From positions 12,710,001 through 12,774,000 of the forward strand of contig CM022665.1 in the NCBI GenBank assembly GCA_012295275.1: 64,000 nt of DNA, written 5' to 3'. Of the stretch, positions 12,935 to 64,000 are shown one piece after another. This DNA is from Chrysomallon squamiferum. Its lineage: Eukaryota; Animalia; Mollusca. The position numbers and the translations under genes are program-made. The stretch's first letter is position 1, and every line of letters begins with the position of its first letter. The notes under the pieces are model-generated. The model saw only the letters and a program-made list of their open reading frames with translations. It was not told the DNA's origin and searched no databases.

Positions 12935-13114
12935 GAGCGCATTACTATATTTTTTCTACTGATACTAATATGTATTCATTTATTCATTCATTAATACCAT
13001 TAGTTTTAAAGTAAATAATATTTGTGATTTCCTGCTTTGTTTTGTGACAGGTATTTTTTGTTTTTTAAAATCTACTTACATCTACATACCATATACATAG
13101 TAGTTGAAAGTATC

Positions 13115-13118
<4 letters not shown>

Positions 13119-13186
<68 letters not shown>
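13119..13186. repeat. (TA)n microsatellite
   Basis: Uninterrupted AT dinucleotide run. Confidence 0.95.
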
Positions 13187-13192
<6 letters not shown>

Positions 13193-46700: not shown

Positions 46701-47995
46701 ATAACAATAATTTTCACAACCATTATTTTGAAATACGTAATCTTCTGTATTTATAATTGTGCTTACCAGCCCAGCAATTTATCTGAATTTAAATTTTTTA
46801 AAGTATGTTTATTTGTCTTTGATTATCTAGAATGGTGCTGTTCAGTGTGAGAGACTGACTTGTCCTCGACCACAGTGTGAACATCCATACACACCAGAAG
46901 GAAAGTGTTGTCCTGTTTGTGTGGGTAAGTAATAATTTTGTGTTCAACTACAATTAAACAGCCAGTGTAATGGGTCAACATTATTATAATTAAAATTATT
47001 TAATTGTTGTTGTTTTTTTTTGGTAGGAAATTGCAAATTGCCAAGATTACCTTATAGACTATCTTTACCAATTACAGTTAATTCAGTTGTACACCAAGTG
47101 TAAATCACAACATGTAATTTGCCCATAGAAAGTAACAATCAAAAAGGACATCAATTAATTAATTAACAGTGTGATCAGTCATATCTCTTGATTATTTATC
47201 TTTGCAGCCTGTTTCTATCAAGGAACAATCTATCAAGATGGAGAAGACTTCCAACCAGACACCTGTACATCTTGTCACTGCGTCCATGGCAATGTGAACT
47301 GTGTCACTGTAGACTGTCCTGTAGTAACATGCAGCAATCCTATAACACCTCTTGGAAAGTGTTGTCCTGTATGCAATAGTGGTAAGATATTTATAAACAT
47401 ATATTTTTAATTAATACTAGTTATACAGAGCCTTTGTTGCAAAAGTTGTGGAGCACTGGTTGGAATGATAAACAGCTCAATGTATATCCACCAAGAAGGA
47501 TTGATCTTAAGACCCCCAGTATATGTTGAACAGTTGCTCTACCATTGAATTATAGTTATTAAGGATTAACTGTATAAGTTACTTTACTGGAACTTTATTA
47601 ACTTTTGATACCGAGTAACCAATGATGTTATAATGTACTGATACGTCATCAAATGTAACAAAATATAAATTATATTTTCAGACTGTGATTATGACATGAG
47701 GAAATACGCCCACAACACATACTTCTTCCCCAGCTACAACCCTTGTTTGAACTGTTCCTGTTTCAACTCACTGGTGAGGTGTCACTCTGTCCGCTGTCCC
47801 CCCATTAAGCTCCCTTGTACACATCCTGTCAGAAGACTTGGAGAATGTTGTCCCTCTCACTGTCCAAGTAAGTTATCAACAACATCATCATCATCATCCC
47901 AATGTCATCATTATCAACTTCATCACAGTAACCATCATCATCATCATTCTCATTATCACCATCTTAATCATTACACCCCCCTCATTATCACCATG

Positions 47996-48041
<46 letters not shown>

Positions 48042-51000: not shown

Positions 51001-54000
51001 TCACATATGTACCTGCAAGGTGTGTTTTATCTATAATAATTCCATTAACTGACATTAATCATTCACAAAAAAAAAAAAAAAAGAATTTCAAAATACCAAA
51101 AATGATAACTTATAAAATAGAGACACTACTTACGGTATAATAAGAGATATGCATGTAATGTGTGAAAAGATTAAATTTTTCTCTGTGTTGAAATATGTTT
51201 CAGGACGGATCTGTGAAATGTGGAAGGAAGGAATGTCCGGAGGTGAACTGTCTGAACCCTGTGGTTCCTCCAGGAAGGTGCTGTCCAGTCTGCAGTTCCT
51301 CTTGTCAGATGGATGGACAAGAGTATCAGGATGGGGAGAGGTTTCCTGATATGAAGGATGACTGCTCTATATGTACTTGTAACGTGGGTGTTATATTTCA
51401 CTGTCTGATTATCTCTGTCACTTCTTCTCTATAATATGTGTCTGTCTATTTTTTTGTTTCTTGCTCTTTGACTCTGTCTCTCTTTACCTCTCTTATCCAT
51501 TCATCCATCCATCAACAGTTAATAAGTCTGTCATATTTCATCCTTTGTTTCATCCTTCTTTCATCCTTTTTATAACTTATTTATTATTTATTTTTCAGGA
51601 TGGAGACATTAGCTGTCAGATGAAGCCCTGCCCCACATTATTGTGTTCCCACCCAGCCAAACTGCCAGGTGACTGCTGCCCTAACTGTGACTTCTGTCTG
51701 CTGGACAGGAGAATTTTCAGGAACATGCAGAGATTCATCCACCCAGATGACGTGTGCCAGGAGTGTGTGTGCAATGTAAATGAATATAATAAAAATAATA
51801 ATAGTAGCAATAATAATAATAATAATTGTAATAATAATAATAATGACAACAATAATAATATAGTAATAAAAATAAGAAAGTCAGAATGATATAGTAATAA
51901 TATTAAGAATTATAATAATAGTTGATATGATGATTATAATAAAATAATAGTGATATAGTAAAAAATATTTATTAATAATAATAATAATAATAATTTTTTT
52001 TTTTTTTGTGTAAATAAAATCTACAAGTAGTTGTCATAATATTACTCGTAAGACAAAAACAGTTTAAAATTAAAAATTTATAAATTATAAATTACATTCT
52101 TGTCATCAGTTTTTAATGAAATAACAAATTAAGAACATTGCTCTAAATTATATAACAGTATCACTTATTAATTAAATATTTATAAAAATTAAAAATACTT
52201 ACATGTTTATATTCAGAGGGGCTCCATAGTGTGCACAAAAGTAAACTGCCCAGCCTTACCCTGCAGCCAGCCAATGCCTATGCCTGGATCATGCTGTCCA
52301 GTGTGTCCAAAGCGCTGTACATATGGTGGTCTGTCATATGAAGATGGACAGACATTTAAAAGCCCACGTGACAAGTGTGAGGAGTGCCTTTGTTTGCAAG
52401 GCCGGGTCCAGTGCAAGAAAATGAAGTGTCCAGTTTCTACTTGTACAAATCCTGTAGAAAGAAACTGCTGTCAGATTTGTGAAGGTGAGACAAATTGTAA
52501 ACCTAACAGGATTTTTTCAAATTGTCATGTTTATTAACTATTATACACTGGTGATAGAGCAAAATTTCAAGATTATATCATAGGCCAAAACCAGTATATA
52601 AATTTTTTTTTTTTTCCCTTCAGACTGCTTCTACAAAAACCAGGTATGGAAAAATGGAATGAAGTTTCAGGATCCTCAAGATTCATGTACCAAATGTAGA
52701 TGTCAAAATGGAAATGTCTGGTGTGAAAAGGTGAACTGTCCACAGGTTTTCTGTCAGAACCCTGTCAGAGAGGGGTGCTGCCCTGTATGCAACAACTGTG
52801 AATATGAGGGCAGGCAGTACAACAATGGTCAAACCTTTTCAGTTTCAAATGGATGCAGAGTATGTACATGCAATGAAGGCACTGTGGAATGCAGGAGTTC
52901 CCTGTGTGCAGCTGTTTCATGCAAGCATCCTGTTCAAGGGCAGTGCTGTAAGGAATGTAATGACTGTCTTTATTTCAAAAGACGTTATGCTAACCATCAA
53001 AGATTCACCAATCCAAGAAACAGATGCCAGGAATGTGTCTGTGATGATGGAACAGTGAGGTGTTCTATGAAACTGTGTCCATCTGTTACTTGTAAGAACC
53101 CCAGACAAGGAGAATGTTGTCCTGAATGTACTGACTGTCAGTACAAAGGCAGGACTATAAGAAATGGACTGAGAATCCCTCATGAGACTGATCCTTGTAA
53201 AGAATGCATCTGTCGAGGAGGTAATGTGGAATGTTTCAAACGACAGTGTCTTAATGCAATATGTCGCAACCCTGTTAAGAGGAGATGTTGTCAGGAGTGT
53301 TCTGACTGCATGTACAATGGCAGAGAGTACAAGAACAGAGAACGGTTCTCTGATCCTACAGACAAGTGTAAAGTGTGTCAGTGTGTCGATGGTAATGTAG
53401 AATGTTCTGCCAAGACTTGTCCTCAAGTCCGATGTTCCAATCCAGTTCAAGGAGCATGCTGTCTGGAATGTTCTAAGTGCATGTACACAAATACTGTCTA
53501 CACAGATGGACAAGATTTCCCTCATGAATCAGACCCTTGTCAAACATGTTCCTGTCACAATGGAAATGTCATCTGCAAGAAGCTCAGCTGTCCAAACATC
53601 ATATGTTCTCACCCAGTTCAAGGTCGTTGCTGTCCTGAATGTGGAGGTGACTGTTTCTTTGAGAGGAGGTTGTATAAGAATGGGGAGAAGTTTCAGAAGG
53701 ATTGTAAAGTGTGTACTTGTGTGGACGGCAGTATGAGGTGTTACCCAAAGTACTGTCCAAAGGTTACATGTTCCAATCCCGTCATCAAAGATTGCTGTCC
53801 TGTTTGTGATGACTGTATGTTTGAAGACAGACATTTTAAGAATGGACAGACCTTTCCTGATCTAAAAGATCCATGTAGTGAATGTTTCTGCAGGGTATTT
53901 TGTTTATTTTACTAAAAAAAAAAAAAAAAAAAATTAATATTGATTTTAATATTTTCTTTTTCTTTTTCAATTAATATGTGAAATTACTTCTCAACTGTAT

Positions 54001-55240
54001 TGATAATATTAGCTTTTTTAAATTAATATTTTTAAGTCATCTTTTTTACTTATGTTAAAAGTGTATAATAATACAGTGTAATAATAATGATAACAATAAT
54101 ATGAACAATAATTTTAATAATAAATTGAATTTAAAATAAAGTTATTATCTGTATTTAACTAATATCTTAATGATTTATTTTCTCAGAACGGCACTTTCCA
54201 GTGTAGAAAGAAGCCATGTCCTGAAGCTATCTGTCAGAACCCTGCTCCTGGTCAATGCTGTCTGGAGTGTCGTAACTGTGCTCTTCATGACAGAATCCTG
54301 CCACATGGTTACAGGTTTCCTGGAGAAAGTGATCCATGTCAGACATGTGTTTGTGAGGTAAACTTAATTTTAGTCTGTGAGATAAATTTTAAAATAAACT
54401 TTCTTGTCAGTGTGCTGTGAACACTTTGCCAATTTCAGAGATTGCTTAACAATTCTAAAGCATATTTATTGAAAGTATTTTATTTTCAGAATTTTGATTA
54501 GTGATTAACACTAAAACATAAAAGAGGGAATCTTCTACAGCAGTATGAAATAAGAAGTTTTAATTGTATATAAGTTTGTTTTTGTTAATTTATCTTTCCT
54601 GTTCACAATGGTGAAAATATATTTTTTTCAAATTTATTTTTTTAATGAAAATATTAAAAAATAATTTTAATAGATTTGTATACATATTTTCTGTATTATT
54701 TCCTTTTATTTATTAATATGAAACTTTCTTATAAAACCAACTTGAAATGAAACAATTTCAATAATTTTAAATAACATACTGACATTTCAAATAAGAAGTT
54801 TCTACTAAAGTAGAAATTTTCATCTGTATAAATTTATGACTCATTCATTTATATTAAATTATAAAATGGTACTGAATAATGTATTCCAAAATAAATCACA
54901 TTCAGCTGTATTTAGCTATAATATCACTTATCGTATACTCTTCATCAAGAAAAAGTTAAAGATTCTGTCACATTATTTTACTTTATATTCTCTCATACGG
55001 CATTATATTGTACCATATAATTAAAAAAATAATAAATAATTATATTTCATAATAATAATTATCCAGGCTGGAACAATAAGCTGTGAACGCAAGATCTGTG
55101 AGCCACCAGCCTGTGACAACCCAGTGGTTGATAGTTGCGGTTGTTCAGCATGTCAACAGTGTCAGTTTGAAGGCAGACGATACCAGAATGGTGAAGAATT
55201 TAGACATCCTACAAGCAACTGTACACAGTGTCGGTGCAGG
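18159..55240 (+). CDS. Giant secreted mosaic protein (kielin/chordin- or NELL-like scaffold with two EGF-Kunitz-tyrosinase-fold-GYD modules); 3' end beyond window
   Basis: 37 GT-AG exons splice in one continuous frame with consistent phases; signal peptide, TSPN/LamG, coiled coil, vWC, EGF, Kunitz, tyrosinase (FLPWHR, GGxM, DPxF), G(Y/F)D repeats, at least 23 C-terminal vWC repeats; no stop codon before the donor at 55241. Confidence 0.88.
20520..20690 (-). mobile_element. Degenerate SINE-like fragment (possibly V-SINE type)
   Basis: Reverse complement atggtatgtgccttcctgtctatgggaaggtacat resembles 49599-49640 and 15200-15250; family assignment from memory only. Confidence 0.45.
21100..21600. 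repeat. Degenerate tandem repeat, about 4 copies of 110-140 bp
   Basis: Recurring tatgttatctgtatttatatc...gcatgttaaat. Confidence 0.6.
26030..26830. repeat. Cryptic trinucleotide low-complexity tract (ACT/ATT/GCT/ACC)
   Basis: 3-periodic degenerate repeats producing spurious Leu/Val/Tyr-rich ORFs in several frames. Confidence 0.85.
26832..27056. repeat. Three ~75-bp tandem copies
   Basis: ttaatacaaagtt...agaacag..tacaa/gttacaact...tcttggtt at 26832, 26909, 26982. Confidence 0.85.
27217..28010. repeat. Diverged ~200-bp direct duplication flanking an (AAT)n tract
   Basis: tggcacatttgg.atgcattttgacaa and cacttagcttggtttat occur at ~27270/27355 and ~27873/27922. Confidence 0.75.
29168..29670 (+). 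CDS. Mosaic gene exon: TSPN/laminin-G-like domain
   Basis: ELDLLK...DYEWNSLVVRINRTSLNVQVDCS...IWLG...FE. Confidence 0.85.
29999..30068 (+). CDS. Mosaic gene exon: end of TSPN/LamG
   Basis: GILFEAKLYPVYIKDSGCDNLPQ. Confidence 0.75.
30318..30436 (+). CDS. Mosaic gene exon: coiled coil
   Basis: ERLRQMEQRVTQLALMVDMLKTQ. Confidence 0.8.
31193..31324 (+). CDS. Mosaic gene exon: coiled coil end + vWC
   Basis: [44 protein letters not shown]. Confidence 0.88.
31621..31669 (+). CDS. Mosaic gene exon
   Basis: DGFPVCKIRMDVPSCQ, cag/gtgagt. Confidence 0.8.
32197..32421 (+). CDS. Mosaic gene exon: EGF 1 + Kunitz 1 N-part
   Basis: PCITSPCSPQGQC...CICQPPFGGPTC; CIWPVDPGNC...RFYYD...CQEFNYSG. Confidence 0.9.
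33035..33177 (+). CDS. Mosaic gene exon: Kunitz 1 C-part + Cys domain
   Basis: GCGGNINNYETEGQCVDTSMQGACCYR. Confidence 0.88.
33953..34170 (+). CDS. Mosaic gene exon: Cys domain + vWC-like
   Basis: CIVGTKQYNIGESLRLGCENCTCKNGGKLSC. Confidence 0.87.
34594..35498 (+). CDS. Mosaic gene exon: tyrosinase-fold domain 1 + start of GYD repeats
   Basis: VRKELRDMT...HVHGGVFYLPWHR...LPYFDFT...HVYIGGDM...DPVFFAIHSYIDMLY. Confidence 0.92.
35881..36066 (+). CDS. Mosaic gene exon: G(Y/F)D repeats
   Basis: GYNRDGFDESGYDRYGYDRYGFDRAGYNRQGFD. Confidence 0.88.
36559..36615. repeat. (GT)n microsatellite
   Basis: Perfect GT run. Confidence 0.95.
36688..36927 (+). CDS. Mosaic gene exon
   Basis: GLDPNGFDRYGFTIRGYDANYCNYFFKGP...RICAP. 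Confidence 0.85.
36970..37260. repeat. Degenerate ~37-bp minisatellite
   Basis: Recurring taaatattcagaattaaagggaaaattt-like unit. Confidence 0.65.
37850..38095 (+). CDS. Mosaic gene exon: Cys-rich domain
   Basis: CQENLCVQESCPAYPDAICRMSFCTEC. Confidence 0.85.
38947..39105 (+). CDS. Mosaic gene exon: EGF 2 + Kunitz 2 start
   Basis: DFCSPNPCHHGGTC...CVCPPGYDGHLC...VCSLP. Confidence 0.9.
39758..39965 (+). CDS. Mosaic gene exon: Kunitz 2
   Basis: GNCDGQEKRWYFNYKSQKCEEFIYTGCYGNSNNFKSVNSCQAKC. Confidence 0.9.
40221..40330 (+). CDS. Mosaic gene exon: GYD repeats
   Basis: YGFNIEGYDRFG...YDDQGFDWQ. Confidence 0.85.
40581..40746 (+). CDS. Mosaic gene exon: GYD repeats
   Basis: GYNLQGYDDEGYDRLGYDKDGYDREGFN. 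Confidence 0.87.
41227..43044 (+). CDS. Mosaic gene exon: vWC-like + tyrosinase-fold domain 2 + GYD repeats
   Basis: 1.8-kb exon; RKEVREMT...FLPWHR...IPYYDWT...WVGGHM...SPYDPLF; long G(Y/F)D tract. Confidence 0.92.
43679..43773 (+). CDS. Mosaic gene exon: Cys-rich
   Basis: LCIVTHAYDVCPIDMPEVLCTENLCKGRSCP. Confidence 0.82.
44490..44582 (+). CDS. Mosaic gene exon: Cys-rich
   Basis: DHPNAVCRTSSCGSCHFEWY. Confidence 0.82.
44703..44782 (+). CDS. Mosaic gene exon: vWC
   Basis: CYDNRVQFRNEGETWKNEKCETCICQ. Confidence 0.85.
45208..45301 (+). CDS. Mosaic gene exon: vWC
   Basis: NGLVECKLIKCKPVYCLHPIRPPRECCVNC. Confidence 0.85.
46112..46359 (+). CDS. Mosaic gene exon: vWC
   Basis: GCTYQGKLY...CCPVC...CQKCICI. 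Confidence 0.9.
46831..46924 (+). CDS. Mosaic gene exon: vWC
   Basis: [30 protein letters not shown]. Confidence 0.88.
47208..47381 (+). CDS. Mosaic gene exon: vWC
   Basis: CFYQGTIYQDGEDFQPDTCTSCHC...GKCCPVC. Confidence 0.88.
47428..47552 (-). mobile_element. Degenerate SINE-like fragment (5' part)
   Basis: Reverse complement ttccaaccagtgctccacaac resembles ttccaggcagtgccccca of the 49513 copy. Confidence 0.4.
47682..47867 (+). CDS. Mosaic gene exon: vWC
   Basis: CDYDMRKY...PCLNCSC...GECCPSHCP. Confidence 0.88.
48446..48622 (+). CDS. Mosaic gene exon: vWC
   Basis: CTHNGVEYDDGETW...GDCCSPC. Confidence 0.88.
49093..49272 (+). CDS. Mosaic gene exon: vWC
   Basis: CLYNSRIIGDG...PCQQCRC...DHCCPQC. 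Confidence 0.88.
49513..49660 (+). mobile_element. Degenerate SINE-like fragment
   Basis: ttccaggcagtgcccc...gtggtatatgttttcctgtttatgggaagtgcat shared with other dispersed fragments in the window. Confidence 0.45.
49780..49860 (+). CDS. Mosaic gene exon: vWC
   Basis: CDYKGRHYQHGEAVSRDRCSRCVCKE. Confidence 0.85.
50270..50442 (+). CDS. Mosaic gene exon: vWC
   Basis: GQCCPVCTSCDYYGRTYDDGQQF. Confidence 0.88.
50837..51019 (+). CDS. Mosaic gene exon: vWC
   Basis: KGQVTC...GQCCLRCDNCLYE...PCHICTCK. Confidence 0.87.
51204..51383 (+). CDS. Mosaic gene exon: vWC
   Basis: DGSVKC...GRCCPVC...CSICTCN. Confidence 0.88.
51599..51775 (+). CDS. Mosaic gene exon: vWC
   Basis: DGDISC...GDCCPNC...CQECVCN. 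Confidence 0.88.
52217..52484 (+). CDS. Mosaic gene exon: vWC
   Basis: GSCCPVCPKRCTYGG...NCCQICE. Confidence 0.9.
52624..53894 (+). CDS. Mosaic gene exon: about 7.5 tandem vWC repeats
   Basis: Open 1.27-kb exon with repeated C..C.C..G...C....C....C..P....CC..C pattern. Confidence 0.93.
54187..54357 (+). CDS. Mosaic gene exon: vWC
   Basis: NGTFQCRKKPC...GQCCLEC...PCQTCVCE. Confidence 0.88.
55067..55240 (+). CDS. Mosaic gene exon: vWC (last visible exon)
   Basis: AGTISCERKIC...CQFEGRRYQNGEEF...CTQCRCR then gtaagt. Confidence 0.88.
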
Positions 55241-55993
55241 GTAAGTGTGAATATTTTTTAAAGTTTTATTAGATGCTGTTCTTTTCCAAAGTAAGATAAT
55301 AAAATAAAATATTTTGCTTTTTACAGTAATTTTTGAACAATGAAATAATCTCTAAGCCCCAAGAACTTTGTAATTTATTAGTCTTTATCATTGCTTTTTA
55401 AATTATTATTTTTGTTTTACCTTCTCATATATTTCATAATATTTCATAATATTTTCAAGCAGTCTTGTTAGGTCATAATTTACTACTAACATATTAAAAA
55501 AAAAAACTTGGAATTAACAAAAAGAATTCAGGCCATTTGTATTATAAAATTATGAGCCTGCTTAGTGCCTTTAGTACAGGTCTTATTTCTATGATTAATG
55601 TGAATAGATGTAACAGAAAATTCTGATTCAAAGAAAGCAGTTTAAGCCTTCCATCTCTATGAAATTATGGCTGTTTTATTAAAGATTATATATGTTCATT
55701 CATGGTATATTACAAAGTAAAAATGAAAGAAAACAATTTAAAAATGTATATACATAATTTATTACAAGAATATGTTTATTACACTAAATTATTATTCTTC
55801 ACCATTGTTTTTTATGACAATTAAAAATTTGATGGCATTAAGCAGAGCTATATTGCCATATTATCCTGAACACAAGTTATTTTTAAAGACATAATAATTA
55901 GTGTTATTCATGGCTGCTGTGTCTGTTCATTCATTCATGTTAAATATAATACTTGTACTGAAAATGTGCATGATGTTTCATTTCATCCACAAG

Positions 55994-56050
55994 CCCTGCT
56001 ACACCTCCATCCAGTAATATTTATCAAACCAGTACAGAAATGTAACAAGG
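55994..56050 (-). ncRNA. pre-miRNA, miR-184-like with seed variant (UGGAUGGAGGUGUAGCAGGG)
   Basis: Near-complete stem on minus strand via G:U pairs; CAUC at +17. Confidence 0.7.
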
Positions 56051-56418
56051 AGATATTGATGATATTCAGCTTCTTCAGAATGCAATATATAATTAAATAT
56101 TTCACACCACCCATGTTTATACCTTTGATTTCAGCTTCATTAGGTAACAAGATGTAGCTTATACATTTTTTTAAATATTCCAAAGAATAAAGACATGATT
56201 AAATCAAGTTATTATATCTTTCTGTGGGTAAAAGGAATTGTTATTATTGAAATCTGGTATAAAAAGAATTATTTCAGAATTTGTTTAGAAGAAAAAAAAA
56301 TGTATCACTGAAATTTGATGTAAAAAGATTACTTACATTAAATGGTTAACAAATATATATATTATCATTGTATTAGCTATTACAGGTTTTTGGTGATTTT
56401 AGTACATGAATTCATCAT

Positions 56419-56487
56419 ATTAGATTCTGTATTAGTCTGTGATAGCTTTTAACAACAGGCAATCACAAGACTGATACAGTGTCTAAT
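56419..56487 (-). ncRNA. mir-2: pre-miRNA, miR-2 family seed (UAUCACAGACUAAUACAGAA)
   Basis: Long stem, 3p arm starts UAUCACAG. Confidence 0.8.
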
Positions 56488-56679
56488 AATGAAGATGGCC
56501 TCTTACACCATAAACTGAACTATTTCTGTGATAGGATGTGTTATAAATCTAATACTATTATTTGTTAACATTAAGTTTGACATTATATTTTATTAAAAAA
56601 GATTATAAAATTATGAAATAAATAAATTTGAATTATTTCAGTTATTTCACTTATATCAAGTTGTTTCTGATCCCACTTA

Positions 56680-56736
56680 CCCCAGCATCTGAAAGTGCTA
56701 GTTTAATCATTTCATACCAGCACAAACAAATACCAG
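56680..56736 (-). ncRNA. pre-miRNA, UAGCACUU family (UAGCACUUUCAGAUGCUGGGG)
   Basis: 18/21 pairs on minus strand; CAAC at +16. Confidence 0.8.
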
Positions 56737-56973
56737 AACAAGAAGAAATTATTTCAAAACTTCATTAGTACATGGCCAACATGGTTATCTACACATACAA
56801 ATATCAAAATTAAAACTAACACTAAAAATAATAATAATAATAATAATAAAGAAATTATAATTGAAAGAATAAACAAAAAGTAACTAAAATTAAAATTTAT
56901 AAACAAGGGAAAATTTTTATAATTTCAAAAATTGCTGTCAACATCTGGTAATTGTTGTTTGAACACCATCACT

Positions 56974-57036
56974 TTCCCTTACTATACTTCCGTCCAGTTT
57001 TCAAAATCAGACCAGATGAAAATATAGCAAAGGGAA
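56974..57036 (-). ncRNA. mir-184: pre-miRNA, miR-184-like (UGGACGGAAGUAUAGUAAGGG)
   Basis: Seed GGACGGA and 3' UAAGGG as in miR-184; CAAC at +18. Confidence 0.82.
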
Positions 57037-57308
57037 GGAATGCATTTTAGAGATTTCTCATATCCTCGTAAGTATTCTGAAAGATTATAATCATAAAAAC
57101 ATTTAGTATATTTGTTTAATATTGTTACAAATATTTATTCAGCATAATAATTATAAAATATTAATAGGAAAGGTTTTTGCTTAATGATTATAGTAGAAAT
57201 TGAATACATATCAAATCAAATTATTATTCTTTCTATGGGTAACAACCAAACCAACATCATAATGACTTTGTAATGGATTACTAATGTAGTTTCTCAAATA
57301 CCACAAAC

Positions 57309-57361
57309 CCAAGCTATATTTCCGTCCAGTTTTGTCACAACAACACAGAAATAGAGCTTGG
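57309..57361 (-). ncRNA. mir-184: pre-miRNA, miR-184-like (UGGACGGAAAUAUAGCUUGGG)
   Basis: Stem ccaagct...agcttgg; CUAC at +18. Confidence 0.75.
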
Positions 57362-57469
57362 ATATGTAATGCTTATTTTCTTCACAATACTATAAACTAC
57401 TCTCTACATGAACATTTGTTTGTTCTTTCATAAGTAGATGGATGGGTATGTGATAATAAAATCCTCTCA

Positions 57470-57525
57470 TCTCACATTTAACTGTGATAGCTACTATCAA
57501 AGGCCATCACAAATCAAATGCAAGG
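57470..57525 (-). ncRNA. mir-2: pre-miRNA, miR-2 family seed (UAUCACAGUUAAAUGUGAGA)
   Basis: ctgtgatagc...gccatcacaa hairpin. Confidence 0.72.
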
Positions 57526-57724
57526 CTAGAAGAAGTCATTTTCATGTACAGGATTGATCTTCCTCTTAGTCAGGATGCCATTAGCCTCGTTGGATGGTTT
57601 CAACATCATAGACAGGAAGGTATGGGCCCCATAGTCAGGATGGAAGATAGACCTGTCCAAAGCCAGAGTGCATCAGTCTCAATTACATAATAATATAGCT
57701 CTAAGAAAACAATAGCTCATCTTA

Positions 57725-57782
57725 TTCTAGCATCAGAAAGTGCTACTTCTTTATCAACAGCAGCACATAGCTAATACTAGAA
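57725..57782 (-). ncRNA. pre-miRNA, UAGCACUU family (UAGCACUUUCUGAUGCUAGAA)
   Basis: ttctagcatc...atactagaa stem. Confidence 0.75.
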
Positions 57783-58003
57783 CAGTCAGAGTTCAAATAG
57801 CTGTTACAATAATATAATTGGTGGTGGCAGAGTTTGATACAACAGTAGCTTTTAATAGCTGCTGGTCAGAGCAATGGAAATCAGACATATCAATGGTCAG
57901 ATACACTGTTAGTCAATGTTTTACCTAAAATAATGAATGGTGGGCATTTCAGTGACTTATGGTCAGGTTATCATTCTTAACATTAAGGAAATATCTCATT
58001 TAG

Positions 58004-58057
58004 CCTAGCATCAGAAAGTGCTAGTTGTTGTCTATACCAGCACATAAATGATACTAG
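58004..58057 (-). ncRNA. pre-miRNA, UAGCACUU family (UAGCACUUUCUGAUGCUAGG)
   Basis: ctagcatca...tgatactag stem. Confidence 0.78.
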
Positions 58058-58232
58058 TCCAAAGAAGCAAATTTGTATGTTTTTTTTTTTAACAATAGAT
58101 GCTTTTTGCAAAGTTCTTTTTCTTCATGGCCATGTGAAATTAAAATATTACTAAAAGTTTTATAAGAGTCTAATTTTGACATCAGTGTGTTAATTAAAAT
58201 ATCATTCTTGTAGAATATATGAATTTACCATC

Positions 58233-58288
58233 CCAAATTTTACTTCCGTCCAGTACTGTATCATAGACCACACAGAAATAAGATTTGG
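58233..58288 (-). ncRNA. mir-184: pre-miRNA, miR-184-like (UGGACGGAAGUAAAAUUUGGG)
   Basis: ccaaattt...agatttgg stem; CUAC at +18. Confidence 0.75.
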
Positions 58289-58368
58289 CAAAAAAAACCA
58301 TATAATTGTTTTGCAGGCTGAAGTGATCAGTTGATTTAGTCAGTGATAGATGATAAACAGACAGTTAA

Positions 58369-58430
58369 ATGTATCACATTCATCTGTGATAACAGCTGAT
58401 ATAGGCAATCAGAAATTAGATGTAATACAT
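58369..58430 (-). ncRNA. mir-2: pre-miRNA, miR-2 family seed (UAUCACAGAUGAAUGUGAUAC)
   Basis: atgtatcacat...atgtaatacat stem; CAUC at +18. Confidence 0.75.
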
Positions 58431-58664
58431 GTAATTGAAATATATACACTCAAATTAAAAGGCACAATTGTTAAGCAAGTATAATGATCATAATATTAAT
58501 TATGAATTTGAAAAAAAAAAAATATATAACAATAATAAATATTTTAGTATATATACACATTTACTGTATGTATAACAATGTTAAATATTATCTTTATCCA
58601 GAGTTGTTAGAACAATGTCTTACCTGATTATTTACAGTCACAGAAGAAATTTCAAATTGTCAGC

Positions 58665-58720
58665 TGTCATATACAACTGTGATAGCAGTTATTAAAAGCA
58701 ATCACAAGTCAAATGTGACA
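58665..58720 (-). ncRNA. mir-2: pre-miRNA, miR-2 family seed (UAUCACAGUUGUAUAUGACAG)
   Basis: tgtcatat...atgtgaca stem; CUUC at +17. Confidence 0.78.
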
Positions 58721-58861
58721 TTAGACAATCAGTCTAGGTTAATTGTCAAATCTGAAAAGGATATTCAGAAATATGACTGAACAGGGATATTTTCCCCCTT
58801 AACCATTTAACCATCTTCGTTTTCTGCAACAACATTTTTTGGTGTCTCCATGGAGATTTGA

Positions 58862-58915
58862 AGTCACATTCATCTGTGATAGCTTTTAGTGAAGGCAATC
58901 ACAAAATAAATGTGC
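58862..58915 (-). ncRNA. mir-2: pre-miRNA, miR-2 family seed (UAUCACAGAUGAAUGUGACUU)
   Basis: cacatt...aatgtg stem; CACC at +16. Confidence 0.75.
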
Positions 58916-59181
58916 TGTCATAAAACCATTTCTTTTTTTTTTCCATCAGGTTTAAATTTCATCTATATAAGAAGGTAAAACATATAAATAATTTATAAAT
59001 TGTGATCAGTTTCTTCAACTTTTTATCATTTGTTTTCAGATCTCAAGCATTTACTAGTGCTAATTGATGTATGTATACAAAAATCCATCATTCCAAAGCC
59101 ATGACATCCAAAATAACAGTATGCAGACACATCATTAAATATTGTTTGTTATTTTACTTTCCCTGAAGAAGAATATTTTTA

Positions 59182-59249
59182 ACTGTCCCAAGCATCAACT
59201 AGTGCTAGTTTATATGAGCACACTAGAACTAGGAAATACTTGGGACAGT
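59182..59249 (-). ncRNA. pre-miRNA, UAGCACUA variant (UAGCACUAGUUGAUGCUUGGG)
   Basis: Perfect basal stem actgtcccaag/cttgggacagt. Confidence 0.8.
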
Positions 59250-59341
59250 ACAGTAAAGAGAACAAACATTTGTAATTCAGGGGATATCAACAGTTAGTGT
59301 ATGGAATTCAAGTATTTTTGATGTTCGGATTTTCTCTTTTA

Positions 59342-59400
59342 CCCCAGCATCAGAAAGTGCTAGTGCTTGTTCAACCAACTAGCACAAAATGAGGCTAAGA
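59342..59400 (-). ncRNA. pre-miRNA, UAGCACUU family (UAGCACUUUCUGAUGCUGGGG)
   Basis: gtgctagt...actagcac stem; CAUC at +18. Confidence 0.78.
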
Positions 59401-59625
59401 CAATTGAGTTGTATATATATCCATGTCATGGCTGGATTCATTAACCCACTTTGAAAATTGATTTAGTGATGATAGAAACACTTGCTGCATTAAATGTTCT
59501 TGAATAATGTAATATTTCTATAATTAATAGAGAAATATTGAAATTACAGCTGTTTGTTATAAAAAAACTGAATATAGATATATTTGCATATTAGGTTGAG
59601 CTACATGATGTTCGCATATATCCTC

Positions 59626-59688
59626 TGGTATCGCATTCAACTGTGATAGCTGCAGGTATCATGCAATCACAAGCAGAATGTGATGTCA
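59626..59688 (-). ncRNA. mir-2: pre-miRNA, miR-2 family seed (UAUCACAGUUGAAUGCGAUACC)
   Basis: atcgcattc...gaatgtgat stem; CAUC at +17. Confidence 0.78.
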
Positions 59689-59847
59689 AATGATAAAAAT
59701 TAATTTACATTTAACAGTCATGCAGATTAATCTAGAATTTTCCTAAAAATTATGGTTGCAATTAACATTAAAATCATATATTAAAAGAGTCTTTACCCTT
59801 TTGAAGAGGGCAGCATTTTCATGGTGTTGTATTTTGATAAAGTGCAC

Positions 59848-60994
59848 TATCCAAGTCTTCTGAATGTTTCTTTGCTAATAAATTATTTATCTGTTGTCAC
59901 ATTCATCTGTGATAGCTTCAGTTCTTGCAATCACAAAAGAATATGGCACCAGAAATAATTATTTTGTATCTCTGTTATCCAAGTCTTCTGAATGTTTCTT
60001 TGCTAATAAATTATTTATCTGTTGTCACATTCATCTGTGATAGCTTCAGTTCTTGCAATCACAAAAAAATATGGCACCAGAAATAATTATTTCGTATCTC
60101 TGTTATCCAAGTCTTCTGAATGTTTCTTTGCTAATAAATTATTTATCTGTTGTCACATTCATCTGTGATAGCTTCAGTTCTTGCAATCACACAAAAGAAT
60201 ATGGCACCAGAAATAATTATTTCATATCTCTGATATCCAAGTCTTCTGAATGTTTCTTTGCTAATAAATTATTTATCTGTTGTCACATTCATCTGTGATA
60301 GCTTCAGTTCTTGCAATCACAAAAGAATATATGGCACCAGAAATAATTATTTCATATCTCTGATATCCAAGTCTTCTGAATGTTTCTTTGCTAATAAATT
60401 ATTTATCTGTTGTCACATTCATCTGTGATAGCTTCAGTTCTTGCAATCACAAAAGAATATGGCACCAGAAATAATTATTTCATATCTCTGATATCCAAGT
60501 CTTCTGAATGTTTCTTTGCTAATAAATTATTTATCTGTTGTCACATTCATCTGTGATAGCTTCAGTTCTTGCAATCACAAAAGAATATGGCACCAGAAAT
60601 AATTATTTTGTATCTCTGTTATCCAAGTCTTCTGAATGTTTCTTTGCTAATAAATTATTTATCTGTTGTCACATTCATCTGTGATAGCTTCAGTTCTTGC
60701 AATCACAAAAGAATATGGCACCAGAAATAATTATTTTGTATCTGTTATCCAAGTCTTCTGAATGTTTCTTTGCTAATAAATTATTTATCTGTTGTCACAT
60801 TCATCTGTGATAGCTTCAGTTCTTGCAGTCACAAAAGAATATGGCATCAGAAATAATTATTTTGTATCTGTTATCCAAGTCTTCTGAATGTTTCTTTGCT
60901 AATAAATTATTTATCTGTTGTCACATTCATCTGTGATAGCTTCAGTTCTTGCAGTCACAAAAGAATATGGCATCAGAAATAATTATTTTGTATC
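59848..60994 (-). repeat. Tandem array of 9 x 126-130 bp units, each carrying one miR-2-seed hairpin (UAUCACAGAUGAAUGUGACAAC)
   Basis: Unit marker ccaagtc at 59851, 59979, 60107, 60237, 60367, 60495, 60623, 60749, 60875; near-identical copies. Confidence 0.95.
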
Positions 60995-61072
60995 GTCTTG
61001 TGAAATGTTAATTATTTATAGTGCTGTGGATCTCAAATCTTATGGCTGCAGAATTATTTCTTTTTTCTTTCT

Positions 61073-61127
61073 CAAGCATCTACTAGTGCTAGTATTAATA
61101 TTTTCACAAGCACTAAACAGGCACTTG
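61073..61127 (-). ncRNA. pre-miRNA, UAGCACUA variant (UAGCACUAGUAGAUGCUUGAG)
   Basis: caagcat...gcacttg stem. Confidence 0.7.
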
Positions 61128-61308
61128 GACAAGCCAAAGAATAGTAAATTTCTGAATGTGTGGTGATGTCATTAACACATCTCTTCTAAAGAATAATAAA
61201 TAGATGAAATAATAAATAATGTCCACAAGAATCTGTGTAATATTGGCTCTTTTTAACAGATTCAGCAGATTTCACATGAAAGGTATTTTGACAACACATG
61301 ACACATAG

Positions 61309-61365
61309 CCTAGCATCCAAAAGTGCTAATGGTTTAAAATGACACCAGCATTTTTTGATACCAGG
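61309..61365 (-). ncRNA. pre-miRNA, UAGCACUU family (UAGCACUUUUGGAUGCUAGG)
   Basis: cctagcatc...gataccagg stem. Confidence 0.72.
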
Positions 61366-61670
61366 TCAAGTGAAATATTAATATCTTTTCTTTTTCATCA
61401 TGGGGATCATTTATTTCTTATTATGGTTTTGGATCTTTGTAAACTCCAAATTATTCTATATTCAGTAAAGAATGTGGAATCTTTGTCTTGCAAACTGTAC
61501 TTGATTTGGGGTTGGTGATATTATATATAGATCTTATCTCACATTTAACTGTGATAGCATAAGAAGCCATGATTTAAGAAAATATTATGTTTTCTAGCAA
61601 GACATCTTTTTATGAGTGTGAGTATTTTATCCTAGAAAATGTAACAGGGATTACTTTCAATTAAAACATT

Positions 61671-61729
61671 TCAAAGCATCAACTAGTGCTAGTGATTTAG
61701 AACAAACAAGCACATAGCAGATTCTTTGA
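61671..61729 (-). ncRNA. pre-miRNA, UAGCACUA variant (UAGCACUAGUUGAUGCUUUGA)
   Basis: tcaaagcatc...gattctttga stem. Confidence 0.75.
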
Positions 61730-61840
61730 GATATAATAAAATATTTCTCAGTCAGTCTGCCAGGATGAAGCCATGGATTTATGTTATTATACAAACTGTC
61801 TGATAATATCTTGTTCTTAGAAACTCTGCTATGATAAGGT

Positions 61841-61922
61841 TGTCATCATTTTCCCAAGCATCAGAAAGTGCTAGTTGTAAATATCTCACCAGCGCATTGT
61901 AATGCTTGGTAAAATGATAACA
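61841..61922 (-). ncRNA. pre-miRNA, UAGCACUU family (UAGCACUUUCUGAUGCUUGGG)
   Basis: ccaagcat...atgcttgg stem with extended basal pairing. Confidence 0.8.
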
Positions 61923-62057
61923 TTCATTGTCTCTTTTATGTTACTGAGAGTAAAATTAAATTTGAAAATACTGATCTGTATTTTTAAATTAATTTAATAA
62001 TACAGTCTTGCTCAATAAATCTCAGAATTAAAGTAAATATGAAGAAGTCTGTGCATT

Positions 62058-62119
62058 ATGTTGCTACATTCATCTGTGATAGCATATAAATTAAAGCAAT
62101 CACAAGGCAAATATAACAT
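62058..62119 (-). ncRNA. mir-2: pre-miRNA, miR-2 family seed (UAUCACAGAUGAAUGUAGCAAC)
   Basis: ctgtgatagc...gcaatcacaa hairpin; CUUC at +16. Confidence 0.72.
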
Positions 62120-62187
62120 CAAAATACATGTAATACTATTAATTTCTCTAAAAAAAATCATATATCTTCTTGTACATTTTTGTTGTG

Positions 62188-62254
62188 CTTTCCCTAGTAT
62201 CAGAAAGTGCTAGGTATAAAATCATTTCCAAGCACAAAGTGATGCCAGAGAAAG
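62188..62254 (-). ncRNA. pre-miRNA, UAGCACUU family (UAGCACUUUCUGAUACUAGGG)
   Basis: ctttc...gaaag bounded stem. Confidence 0.75.
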
Positions 62255-62322
62255 TAGAACATTTGTTAAGCTGAAATATATAATTGTAATAACTATATTC
62301 AAGATGTAAGGAAGGTTGCTTA

Positions 62323-62379
62323 CCCTAGCATCAGTAAGTGCTAAATATAATTTAGTTTCAGCAAAAACGGATACCAGAG
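62323..62379 (-). ncRNA. pre-miRNA, UAGCACUU family (UAGCACUUACUGAUGCUAGGG)
   Basis: Weaker stem; CAUC at +16. Confidence 0.62.
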
Positions 62380-62583
62380 AAAGAAAACTCAGTATCTTTA
62401 ATGAATCCTAGACTTGAGATCTGAAAAAAAAAAAAAAAATCCACAAATGTTTCTAAATTAATAAATAAAAATAGGTGATCCTTTCAGTGTAACATTATCA
62501 CTTACATTTTGATACTTTGTAAATTATATACCAGTATTCATATTTTAACCAAACATTCTCTGTAAAGTTTGAACAGAAACATA

Positions 62584-62641
62584 CCCTTACTATATTTCCG
62601 TCCAGTTCTTTAACACAGACAGGATGGGTATATAGTAAAGG
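62584..62641 (-). ncRNA. mir-184: pre-miRNA, miR-184-like (UGGACGGAAAUAUAGUAAGGG)
   Basis: ttactatat...atatagtaa stem. Confidence 0.8.
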
Positions 62642-62803
62642 AATATAAATGTGTTGGGATGAATCATTTATAACTGTTTCAGGTAATTCTGTACTGCCTA
62701 CTTATACCTATTATAATTACTGAAAATATTACTGGGTAATATTCTTGAACTTACCTGAGTGCCTGGATATATATTTGTTTCTATGCTTATTGTACTCCAG
62801 ACC

Positions 62804-62860
62804 TTGCATTGATCTGTGATTGCTTGAGATTAACATTATGCAATCACAAGAAAAATACAA
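62804..62860 (-). ncRNA. mir-2: pre-miRNA, miR-2 family seed (AAUCACAGAUCAAUGCAAGG)
   Basis: tgtgattgc...gcaatcaca stem; 5' nt A instead of U. Confidence 0.68.
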
Positions 62861-63104
62861 TGTTAGAATTCAAATTAATCAAACTAGTTCAAAAAGTTGC
62901 ATATCATGACCAGCACCTCCTTTCTGTTTTTAAATAATCCTTTAAGATTTTAAGCAAATTAATATCTTGTCTCTATGAATGCCTGAACTAGTGGTAAGAC
63001 ACCTCTTCCCTTTCTAAGTAATCAGTTGATTTTCACTGATTTTGCTCATTCATATTTTTATTAGTCTTTAAAATATCTTTATTGAAAAGTCGTTAGAAGG
63101 TTTT

Positions 63105-63177
63105 TCATCTCGTGTCACATATAGCTGTGATAACTTTATATAAATTGTCATCACAAGCTAGATGTGAGCAGAGATGA
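63105..63177 (-). ncRNA. mir-2: pre-miRNA, miR-2/13-like (UAUCACAGCUAUAUGUGACACG)
   Basis: Long stem tcatctc...gagatga; closest copy to canonical miR-2/miR-13. Confidence 0.82.
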
Positions 63178-63243
63178 TAAAAATAAATTAGAACAAGAAT
63201 GTCAGCTATACAAAAATATGGTTAAATAAAGACATATTTGGTA

Positions 63244-63295
63244 TAGCATTAGAAAGTGCTAGCAGCAAAGATAAGCCAGCACATAACTAATGCTA
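63244..63295 (-). ncRNA. pre-miRNA, UAGCACUU family (UAGCACUUUCUAAUGCUAUA)
   Basis: Perfect tagcattag/ctaatgcta stem segment. Confidence 0.77.
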
Positions 63296-63443
63296 GGCAA
63301 AAGAAGCCATTTAAAATTTCATCATGAATTTTTTGTTAATCATAGCCTTTGTCAGTTGCTTGTGAATGTCTTTATTCTTGGAAGAATATACTATTTTATC
63401 ATAAGGTTTAATCATTCTGAATGTAACAAATATGAATGCCAGA

Positions 63444-63513
63444 TATCAGGTATTGCAGGTTTCTGTGATAGCTATTAACATCTGCAGTCACAAGAAAGAT
63501 ACAATGGCTGATA
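63444..63513 (-). ncRNA. mir-2: pre-miRNA, miR-2 family seed (UAUCACAGAAACCUGCAAUACC)
   Basis: tatcag...ctgata bounded stem. Confidence 0.75.
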
Positions 63514-63746
63514 AATGAAATTTTTCATTAATAGTAAGATCCATCGTGTATTTAGGATATACAAGTACCTCTTCATAATACTATCAATATTGTATTTGGT
63601 AAGAACATTTTTAGTTTATTTAGGATAAAGAAGTCCCTACGATAATATTATTTGCATTCTCTTTATTAAGAATTTTCATAGACTACTAGTCCCTACCAAA
63701 ATGATATCAGTAAGTTGATAAATCTGATGAAGACTATAACCCAGTA

Positions 63747-63803
63747 CCCCAGCATCTGAAAGTGCTAGTATCCTAATATAACAAGCACAAACAGATACTG
63801 TGG
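63747..63803 (-). ncRNA. pre-miRNA, UAGCACUU family (UAGCACUUUCAGAUGCUGGGG)
   Basis: Same predicted mature as the 56680 copy; CAUC at +17. Confidence 0.8.
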
Positions 63804-63961
63804 AACAGAGTAATAATTGTGATACCAGTTCCCTTGATTATAGATCTCAAATTCTATTACACTATTTTACAGTGTCTTTGTCTTTATTTGTCTTTGTGGG
63901 TGATATACTGTTTAGTATTAATATCTAGCATACAAATATAGAGTAGTGGTAATTCTTCTCA

Positions 63962-64000
63962 TTCCCAGGATACCACTGTGATACTAACTATATGTGCAGT
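63962..64000 (-). ncRNA. mir-2: Partial pre-miRNA, miR-2 family seed (UAUCACAGUGGUAUCCUGGGAA), cut by window edge
   Basis: ctgtgata + loop + gcagt as in other copies; partner arm outside window. Confidence 0.55.

Follow-up and report, generated by a model that had tools for sequence, protein, structure and literature searches.

Zebrafish miR-430 and Drosophila miR-309 are multi-copy microRNA (miRNA) clusters of the early embryo. A comparable cluster, tandemly duplicated and embryonic, lies on scaffold_488 of Capitella teleta and is likened to miR-430 by its authors in the part of their report available to us (PMC8915122). In molluscs, the reference data come from Xu et al. (2014), who, in the sections at hand, sequenced small RNAs from 21 libraries of the oyster Crassostrea gigas (PMC4138081). 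Here, we analyzed a stretch of 64,000 nucleotides of the Chrysomallon squamiferum genome (contig CM022665.1, positions 12,710,001 to 12,774,000, forward strand), called the window throughout. Its last 8 kb, opposite to a kielin/chordin-like gene, carries at least 40 tandem hairpins of the miRNA type in three seed families. A single antisense intronic transcript is their likely source, and the sequenced oyster relatives lead us to predict that they are made in the early embryo. We give this reading a probability of roughly 0.8. It is carried by hairpin anatomy, invariant 5' ends of the 3' arm (3p) products, co-varying arms, a strand bias, a positioned CNNC motif, and the kinship of one family to sequenced oyster miRNAs, each of which was observed directly.

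In design, the locus resembles the miR-430, miR-309, and Capitella clusters, with many tandem copies, few seeds, and a single strand. It has no sequence relation to them and, unlike them, joins ancient seeds (miR-2-type and miR-184-type) with a molluscan family. Clusters of this general kind, large, multi-copy, and embryonic, are already known, as are small oyster versions of two of the three components.

RESULTS

Inventory and folding of the hairpin units

Forty seed-bearing units were counted on the minus strand of positions 55,983-64,000, comprising 21 M units, 14 U units, and 5 G units. M units have UAUCACAG at the 5' end of the 3p arm (19 complete units and one cut by the window end; one more reads AAUCACAG). 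In U units, the 3p arm begins with UAGCACU, and the window sequence of the G units reads UGGACGGA in four cases and UGGAUGGA in the fifth. A sequence-only reading of this DNA had counted about 38 hairpins in three seed families with 3p guides. The dense recurrence of stem-loops and the three families, with the motif at the start of the 3p arm, are borne out here, and the count is revised to 40. Spacing from unit to unit is 126-431 nt. The unit at 63,983 is truncated by the window edge, with only 17 nt of upstream sequence left, so the cluster is open-ended, as had been proposed.

The window contains the motif TATCACAG 22 times, never on the plus strand, and 21 copies fall within 56,437-63,983, compared to 2.52 +/- 1.45 in 100 shuffles (maximum, 5). 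TAGCACT has 14 matches, likewise all minus and all within 56,694-63,767 (shuffles, 5.75 +/- 2.35; maximum, 11). TGGAYGGA occurs 14 times in the window; five of these matches lie on the minus strand of the cluster region, among them all four window copies of TGGACGGA. No hairpin was found by folding around the TATCACAG matches at 56,533 and 18,333.

Units were folded as 78-nt segments anchored on the motif, with z scores calculated against mononucleotide shuffles. The motif sits at the 5' end of the 3' arm in stem-loops of ~60 to 85 nt, and all 39 folds contain 20-31 pairs (the corresponding MirGeneDB-type criterion is at least 16 paired nucleotides between the arms). The z score is below -2 in 37 of the 39 complete units (median, -4.7), the exceptions being the units at 61,556 and 59,062. 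The first has lost its 5' arm (5p) and the second its stem; a third unit (58362..58437) is weak. At 59,848-60,994, nine M units follow one another as a tandem array with a period of 128 bp, 9.0 copies, and 97% matches.

A blind hairpin scan (80-nt windows, step 10, single stem, at least 24 pairs, dG <= -20) returned 28 minus-strand hairpins in the last 8.1 kb, compared to 20 for the remaining 55.9 kb. On the plus strand, the 8.1-kb segment gave only 10. Since all 28 match seed-bearing units in position, a fourth family is absent. The long (TA)n microsatellite at 13111-13190 scores as a hairpin on both strands, showing that the scan also picks up simple repeats and GC-richer exons outside the cluster.

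The minus-strand RNA is the more stable one in 32 of 39 units, or in 24 of 31 with the array counted once (Wilcoxon p = 1.5e-4), because G-U pairs turn into A-C mismatches on the plus strand. Two covariance models were built, R1 from 13 of the 21 M units (with two of the nine array copies and without the cut unit) and R2 from all 14 U units. Every M and U member is recovered on the minus strand at E <= 1e-8 (E <= 1e-12 for intact units), and scores on the plus strand are ~30 bits lower with both models. The other 56 kb of the window yields no further member (best E, 0.07-1.2). One-strand motifs, folds compared on both strands, and the positioned CNNC motif described below agree with the minus-strand orientation that the sequence-only reading had assumed. 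Separately, a lone ~70-nt hairpin occurs at 33611-33710 in another intron of the host gene (minus, dG -26.6, z -3.2; plus, dG -27.7, z -2.3). It has none of the three seeds and scores weakly with the models (14.6 bits with R2).

The units are given below from right to left. M model and U model stand for R1 and R2, m0317_3p is a 22-nt oyster miRNA discussed below, and Rfam scores were obtained in E-value mode.

63954..64000, minus: M unit with UAUCACAG, cut by the window end; motif at 63983
63733..63817, minus: U hairpin, predicted 3p UAGCACUUUCAGAUGCUGGGGU (63746-63767); z -5.0; U model 71.9 bits; 3 mismatches to oyster m0317_3p
63439..63518, minus: M hairpin, 3p starts with UAUCACAG at 63470; z -4.2; M model 77.1 bits
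63244..63308, minus: U hairpin, UAGCACU at 63261; z -6.6; U model 67.1 bits; M model 38.6 bits
63105..63177, minus: M hairpin, 3p start 63132; dG -33.9; z -8.3; M model match
62794..62869, minus: M-type hairpin with AAUCACAG at 62821; z -4.6; M model 64.7 bits
62573..62652, minus: G hairpin, 3p UGGACGGAAAUAUAGUAAGGGU (62583-62604); Rfam mir-184 34.8 bits, E 1.4e-4, below the gathering score of 54.1
62312..62390, minus: U hairpin, 3p UAGCACUUACUGAUGCUAGGGU; fold and U model; 2/22 mismatches to oyster m0317_3p
62181..62261, minus: U hairpin, 3p start 62212; U model 80 bits; Rfam mir-29 25.8 bits, E 0.06; compared with m0317_3p
62052..62128, minus: M hairpin, 3p start 62081; z -5.5; minus -23.0 versus plus -10.5 kcal/mol; M model
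61841..61922, minus: U hairpin, 3p UAGCACUUUCUGAUGCUUGGGA; z -7.1; U model; 2 mismatches to oyster m0317_3p
61661..61739, minus: U hairpin of the UAGCACUAG subtype, 3p start 61691; fold; U model 72.1 bits
61531..61603, minus: decayed M unit, 3p arm retained, 5p arm gone; z -1.1, second fold test z -0.35; M model 46.2 bits
61296..61378, minus: U hairpin, 3p start 61328; fold; U model 67.9 bits
61058..61141, minus: U hairpin of the UAGCACUAG subtype, weaker stem; dG -18; z -2.6; U model 70.6 bits
59848..60994, minus: nine-unit M array, identical predicted 3p UAUCACAGAUGAAUGUGACAAC; M model 73-82 bits each
60938, 60812, 60686, 60558, 60430, 60300, 60170, 60042, and 59914, minus: 3p starts of the M units in the array
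59619..59695, minus: M hairpin, 3p start 59648; M model 84.1 bits; Rfam mir-43 23.9 bits, E 0.51
59334..59408, minus: U hairpin, 3p UAGCACUUUCUGAUGCUGGGGU; fold and U model; 2 mismatches to oyster m0317_3p
59182..59249, minus: U hairpin of the UAGCACUAG subtype; dG -35.7; z -8.6; U model
59035..59112, minus: decayed U unit, seed retained, stem gone; z -0.6; U model 51.2 bits
58850..58929, minus: M hairpin, 3p start 58881; fold; M model 78 bits
58655..58730, minus: M hairpin, 3p start 58684; z -5.0; M model
58362..58437, minus: weak M hairpin, in which a change in the 5p arm loosens the pairing opposite the seed; dG -15; z -2.3; M model 65.8 bits
58218..58302, minus: G hairpin, 3p UGGACGGAAGUAAAAUUUGGGA; z -4.1
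57995..58067, minus: U hairpin, 3p start 58023; fold; U model 79.4 bits
57716..57791, minus: U hairpin, 3p start 57745; dG -31; z -6.9; U model
57456..57539, minus: M hairpin, 3p start 57489; minus -30.0 versus plus -14.6; M model; U model 29 bits
57295..57375, minus: G hairpin, 3p UGGACGGAAAUAUAGCUUGGGU; dG -31.4; z -6.3
56962..57046, minus: G hairpin (unit 56,996), 3p UGGACGGAAGUAUAGUAAGGGA; Rfam mir-184 28.7 bits, E 0.006; 3/22 mismatches to the oyster mir-184 array variant
56671..56747, minus: U hairpin, 3p start 56700; minus -30.2 versus plus -6.7; 11 G-U pairs; U model; compared with m0317_3p
56411..56493, minus: M hairpin, 3p start 56444; z -6.7; M model
55983..56062, minus: G hairpin, last cluster unit in the window, reading UGGAUGGA; motif and fold

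Conservation, co-variation, and the CNNC motif

Mean pairwise identity in the U alignment is 1.00 at positions 1-7 of the 3p arm, falls to ~0.5 at positions 9-12, and returns to 0.97 at positions 13-17. It equals 0.61 in the 5' arm, 0.35 in the loop, and 0.36-0.38 in the flanks. The profiles of the M and G units have the same shape. Seed identity is 0.95-1.00 versus 0.32-0.56 in loops and flanks, which is the mature-arm conservation looked for under MirGeneDB-type criteria; outside the array, loops and flanks are at background identity (0.35-0.47). High identity in the seed, lower identity further along, and a renewed rise at positions 13-17 are as predicted for targeting by a guide strand, and unlike a foldback repeat. 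The paired cells amount to 90.3% in the U units, where 8 pairs are changed on both sides, and to 88.3% in the M units, with 11 such pairs. In each family, none of 500 shuffles reaches the observed score, figures that are not probabilities, since paralogues share descent; controls with slid alignments give 27-48% pairing. Both the invariant seeds beside drifted loops and the co-varying partner arms had been described in the sequence-only reading, and both hold up when quantified.

CNNC motifs usually lie ~16 to 18 nt from the Drosha cut. Here, if the 3p product is taken to be 22 nt long, a CNNC begins 15-19 nt past its end in 17 of the 31 units that are non-redundant once eight array copies are set aside (17 of 39 overall), compared to a background of 8.4% in other 5-nt windows (binomial p = 4e-11). 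On the single-stranded 3' side, CNNC is a recognised processing motif of primary miRNA transcripts, according to the portion of the source available (PMC11701709). The position of the motif identifies the strand, and approximately the cut site, without recourse to folding.

Not all units fit equally well. In the array, none of the nine units has CNNC in register, and the 78-nt folds pair only 22-23 bp. Speculatively, these units might rely on better neighbours; such cluster assistance among miRNA hairpins is reportedly named in a preprint. In addition, unit turnover is ongoing, since two units are decayed and one is weak. These observations, together with the nine near-identical copies, could also be read as a decaying hairpin satellite, in which former miRNA genes have been amplified by unequal crossing-over and have lost processing and selection. 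Such a satellite is difficult to reconcile with the seed identity of 0.95-1.00, the 0.97 at positions 13-17 of the U units, the compensatory pairs kept despite drift of loops and flanks, and the retention of the U family since the split from oyster, and we consider it improbable.

Genomic context and sequencing runs

The plus strand of the window codes for a large protein of the kielin/chordin-like kind, a type of BMP regulator, that combines tyrosinase, Kunitz, and EGF-like parts with many VWC repeats. Its last exon within the window borders the cluster:

55065..55241, plus: last host exon in the window, VWC repeat; joint 54355->55065, GT..AG; its GT donor opens the cluster intron

Contigs from four sequencing runs were examined over 44001-62400, where stretches without contig cover carry no meaning. 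Runs X1-X3 are RNA; the kind of X4 is unrecorded, and it was read as DNA. X1-X3 hold a spliced host mRNA of 9-12 kb with GT..AG joints through exon 55,065-55,241. Protein coding in 55,242-64,000 was considered and rejected, the open reading frames (ORFs) there being of low complexity only. As the cluster lies past the 55,241 donor, on the opposite strand, and without a plausible exon ORF in 55,242-64,000, it fits an antisense intronic position in the kielin/chordin-like gene, with the acceptor exon beyond the window. This agrees with the exon-free intron after the 55241 donor and with the antisense orientation that had been read from the letters: the host mRNA is spliced on the plus strand, and the hairpins are on the minus strand.

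RNA contigs within the cluster cover 55658-56110, 56533-56788, and 58203-58479 (X1) as well as 57302-57569 and 61692-61891 (X2). One of them bears on a seed. At position 56009, the window has A on the plus strand; the X4 contig has G in 50/50 reads and the X1 RNA contig in 5/5, which gives UGGACGGA. The sole deviant miR-184-type seed, UGGAUGGA, is a variant of this assembly or individual.

X4 contigs run unbroken over 53,979-56,788 and 56,862-59,877 at a depth of 50-56, compared to 52-54 for exon contigs. The hairpins are single-copy sequence, because a high-copy family would break the contigs and raise the depth. An AT-rich intron (G+C of the window, 24-32%) filled with short inverted repeats that resemble one another recalls a dispersed foldback transposon of the miniature inverted-repeat transposable element (MITE) type that happens to be dense here. 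Such a family would not be expected to place 40 of 40 units on one strand, to hold the 5' end of one arm invariant with a freer partner arm, or to contain G-U pairs that weaken the plus strand; X4 contigs traverse at least 10 units at single-copy depth, and the oyster counterparts give 5p and 3p reads. We rejected a MITE on the single-copy depth and the lack of copies elsewhere in the window, and consider it very unlikely indeed. The sequence-only reading had named a dispersed MITE family as grounds for giving up the cluster; within the window, the other 56 kb holds no copies.

Relatives of the U and G units in the oyster

The C. gigas miRNAs m0317_3p and m0316_3p begin with UAGCACUUAC and carry GAUGCUGGG (PMC4138081 supplement). 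They belong to m0314-m0317, which, like m0338/m0342/m0345/m0347, are classed as "novel, oyster-specific" in the part of the report at hand (PMC4138081). m0314-m0317 (cluster20) lie within 1 kb on scaffold370, in the 642-644 kb region, and are marked "+/-", that is, antisense to the host gene CGI_10025557, and m0338, m0342, and m0345 on scaffold392, in the 613-617 kb region, carry UAGCACUAG, the second U subtype of the window (PMC4138081). Six of the 14 U units are within 3 mismatches of m0317_3p (22 nt) and three within 2, where none is expected.

The U units share with oyster m0314-m0347 the 3p 5' end UAGCACU (the oyster also has AAGCACU and GAGCACU), the GAUGCU/GUGCU core at positions 12-17, the 3p guide, the clustered genes, and both subtypes, UAGCACUUxCxG... 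and UAGCACUAG...; three window units are 20/22 identical. As in cluster20, they lie antisense inside a host gene. The oyster loci differ in extent, with 4 + 4 hairpins at two loci, compared to 14 U units among 21 M and 5 G units over more than 8 kb in the window. No paper mentioning any of the oyster host-gene identifiers (CGI_10025557 included) was found. The UAGCACU family is therefore one whose miRNAs have been sequenced, and it dates back at least to the split between the oyster and the present lineage. The proposal of a lineage-specific cluster does not survive for this family, which is matched at 20/22 positions by C. gigas miRNAs sequenced in 2014.

The oyster relatives are read as both 5p and 3p products of ~22 nt, and m0317 passed the overhang rule of the authors (PMC4138081). 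In reads per million (RPM), m0317_3p stands at 14 in the egg, 287 in the blastula, 374 and 140 in the trochophore, and 36.5 in the D-larva, and none is read in older larvae, spat, juveniles, or any of eight adult organs, the female gonad among them (PMC4138081). The reads of m0316_3p are 3, 290, 1802, 789, and 1236, then 0 (PMC4138081). Like miR-430 and miR-309, these miRNAs come on after the egg stage and are gone by later larvae; the UAGCACU family is zygotic-embryonic in the oyster. Expression is recorded for the oyster family, to which the U family of the window is likened by sequence. The sequence-only reading had suggested an early-embryo or germline role, the first half of which fits the U relatives (blastula to D-larva). 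A germline or maternal role is disfavoured for U units, given almost no reads in the egg and female gonad.

The units could also form a genuine miRNA cluster that is expressed in adult somatic tissue (nervous, immune, mantle) or constitutively, with no role in maternal mRNAs. Adult Biomphalaria hemolymph has miR-184 as one of its most abundant miRNAs, reads of canonical oyster miR-2 come from every stage and organ, and short RNA contigs from X1-X2, libraries of unstated stage, cover five stretches of the cluster. The only closely matched family, UAGCACU, is however read only from blastula to D-larva in the oyster, with 0 in eight adult organs, and the M and G units are divergent paralogues rather than canonical genes. 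We regard adult or constitutive expression as unlikely, though deserving of serious consideration. Much less plausible is that the hairpins yield other small RNAs, as hairpin endo-siRNAs or as a piRNA precursor. A long one-strand locus antisense to a gene would suit such a source, and piRNAs are abundant in spiralian embryos (Capitella, PMC8915122, available part); stems of ~22 to 31 bp, loops of 10-15 nt, seed-type conservation, a positioned CNNC, and ~22-nt 5p and 3p products in the oyster make it barely credible.

For the G units, the closest described system is mir-184 of C. gigas, which has 67 BLAST hits at two loci and is left unanalysed in the part of the report available (PMC4138081). 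The arrays lie at scaffold121:718110-722565 and scaffold43150:63164-67661, consist of near-identical units ~128 bp apart, and have the mature form UGGACGGAAGUCUGAUAAGGGA (PMC4138081 Table S8). This variant is 19/22 identical to window unit 56,996. In both species, mir-184 is multi-copy and divergent, with UGGACGGAAG... instead of the canonical UGGACGGAGAAC.... The oyster arrays are near-identical and listed as mir-184 hits only, unlike the five G units, which are mutually diverged and scattered among the other families. The ~128-bp spacing of the oyster arrays is like that of the 128-bp M array in the window; a common period despite different hairpins may be a coincidence or a shared constraint on unit length. 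As a further side observation, the hairpin of oyster m0146 resembles M units, with ...UUUUGU..UGCAAG in the 5p arm and AUGUGxCA in the 3p arm, in a comparison made by eye only.

When metagenomes were searched with 17 nt of the U consensus, 119 loci turned up with one match each, none with a comparable hairpin or neighbouring units, so these are chance matches. In two metagenome contigs, TAGCACT recurs on a single strand, 11 times within 7.6 kb (L029) and 7 times within 3.6 kb (L013), with no hairpin context; this is probably an unrelated repeat.

Relation to miR-2, miR-184, and miR-29

In E-value mode, the Rfam mir-184 model matches G units at 34.8 (E 1.4e-4), 28.7 (E 0.006), and 16.8 bits (E 10), compared to a cut-off of 54.1. 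The canonical snail miR-184 22-mer has no match within 3 mismatches, and 15-16 of its 22 positions agree by eye. Some M units match mir-43 (23.9 bits, E 0.51) and mir-308 (~21 bits, E ~1); Rfam mir-2 has no match at E <= 10, nor does canonical oyster miR-2d have one within 3 mismatches. The M and G units thus appear, from these comparisons, to be divergent paralogues that share the miR-2 and miR-184 seeds, and not the canonical genes. The earlier miR-2 and miR-184 labels remain apt for the seed end only, as no canonical mature sequence lies within 3 mismatches and the Rfam scores stay below gathering.

The motif UGAAAGAC, which we take to be the miR-71 seed, is absent from the cluster region, although the window ends inside the cluster. 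With no Rfam mir-2 match either, the locus is indeed unlike the canonical miR-71/miR-2 cluster, as had been noted. Linkage to mir-71 is the ancestral arrangement of mir-2, as stated in the available part of the report (PMC3384581, Marco, Hooks and Griffiths-Jones 2012). With that canonical cluster, the M units share UAUCACAG at the 3p 5' end, tandem growth, and the intronic position found in some species (PMC3384581, same part). They differ from canonical miR-2 in 3' halves unrelated to UAUCACAGCCAGCUUUGAUGAGC, in having 21 copies, in being antisense to the host, and in the missing mir-71. The canonical oyster miR-2 genes (cgi-miR-2a/c/d/f/g) are sense-intronic in PPP4R1 and read in all stages and organs (PMC4138081).

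The U units resemble MIR-29 (bgl-miR-29-3p, uagcaccauuugaaaucaguuu) in the first six nucleotides (UAGCAC), the 3p guide, and one Rfam hit (25.8 bits, E 0.06). Membership of MIR-29 was rejected: the seed is AGCACUU/AGCACUA and not AGCACCA, there are no matches within 3 mismatches, and 13 of 14 units have no Rfam mir-29 match.

The models of the M and U units recognize each other's members. R1 scores U63,261 at 38.6 bits (E 2e-6) and U58,023 at 27.8 bits; R2 scores M57,489 at 29 bits (E 3e-4) and array copies at ~25 bits, and finds no match among the G units. M and U 3p arms share 9.85 of 22 positions versus 5.5 in shuffles, a comparison that covered 10 M, 13 U, and 5 G units, leaving out the decayed ones and eight of the array copies, and that is weakened by short sequences, rough E-values, and non-independent pairs. 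This hints at a common origin of M and U units with a change of seed.

Features of the host protein

The closest named relatives of the VWC exon are in Mytilus and Haliotis (~50% identity). For the tyrosinase part, the closest named relative is in Elysia (54%), and a nameless protein reaches 85%. The host carries two tyrosinase (PF00264) domains, at 34562-35767 and 41135-43048 (plus), and the combination of kielin/chordin-like and tyrosinase parts also occurs in named fish, priapulid, and Elysia proteins. Beside the tyrosinase domains, runs of a G-[FY]-D-R-x-G-[FY]-[DN] repeat lie in host exons at 35829-36176, 40469-40789, and 42300-42900 (plus). These runs match many unrelated bacterial and metagenomic protein families at 24-30% coverage, presumably via the repeat alone.

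DISCUSSION

We propose that the cluster is made and used as follows. RNA polymerase II would transcribe the minus strand from a start beyond 64,000 into one primary transcript. In each stem, the Microprocessor cut would fall ~22 nt past the beginning of the seed, aided by the downstream CNNC, and Dicer would free ~22-nt duplexes, from which Argonaute would retain the 3p strand beginning with U. The seeds AUCACAG, AGCACUU/AGCACUA, and GGACGGA may then repress three sets of mRNAs, at a high dose owing to copy number. Expression would be early zygotic, with action on maternal or early transcripts through the three seeds; clearance of maternal mRNAs at zygotic genome activation is a prediction by analogy only. 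The cluster probably grew by local duplication, with the nine-copy, 128-bp array as the likely latest step, and the UAGCACU and UAUCACAG units likely go back to a common ancestor, the seed of the former having changed since.

Besides the imperfect array and the unit turnover, several points weigh against this reading. At gathering scores, Rfam has no match in the whole window. The 22-nt products, fixed 5' ends, and 2-nt overhangs are, for this species, predictions from sequence. The five RNA contigs in the cluster are short and unstranded, with a depth of 2-5 compared to 13-39 for host mRNA, and are indistinguishable from host intron or DNA carry-over. Oyster m0316 failed the overhang criterion of its authors (PMC4138081), and the embryonic timing is carried over from a single family of another species. 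Finally, because miR-184 is abundant in the hemolymph of an adult snail (Biomphalaria), the cluster need not be restricted to the embryo.

A more far-reaching account would make the locus the expanded form of an old molluscan embryonic superfamily that dates at least from the split with oysters. In it, mir-2-type hairpins would have been duplicated locally and changed their seed from UAUCACAG to UAGCACUU/UAGCACUA, and divergent mir-184 copies would have been recruited, producing a spiralian counterpart of miR-430 and miR-309 that clears maternal mRNAs in a zygotic burst of three seeds at high dose. We put this forward tentatively, and it is doubtful in its full extent.

To our knowledge, the maternal-to-zygotic transition of spiralians has not been linked to any miRNA. 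A study of this transition in a bivalve does not mention miRNAs in the part available to us (PMC12780502). Our literature search found neither a combined miR-2/miR-184/miR-29-like cluster nor a molluscan miRNA of maternal clearance, and the available portions of octopus, MirGeneDB 3.0, abalone, flat oyster, and mollusc small noncoding RNA papers make no mention of such a cluster. The predicted mature strings were not found in a mollusc context in main texts. What seems new is the size of the locus (at least 40 units, open-ended) and the presence of three interleaved seed families at a single antisense intronic site. Two further points seem new, namely that a family classed as "oyster-specific" is shown to predate oysters and that there is a hint of its kinship to the miR-2-seed units.

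If the locus is already annotated in MirGeneDB or in the annotation of the species, it would be a well-documented example. In either case, it joins three scattered observations, namely the "oyster-specific" embryonic miRNAs, the unexplained mir-184 arrays of the oyster, and the expansions of miR-2 seeds. Its series of paralogues is useful for studying how a seed changes after tandem duplication, and it offers three concrete seeds to seek in the 3' untranslated regions of cleared maternal mRNAs.

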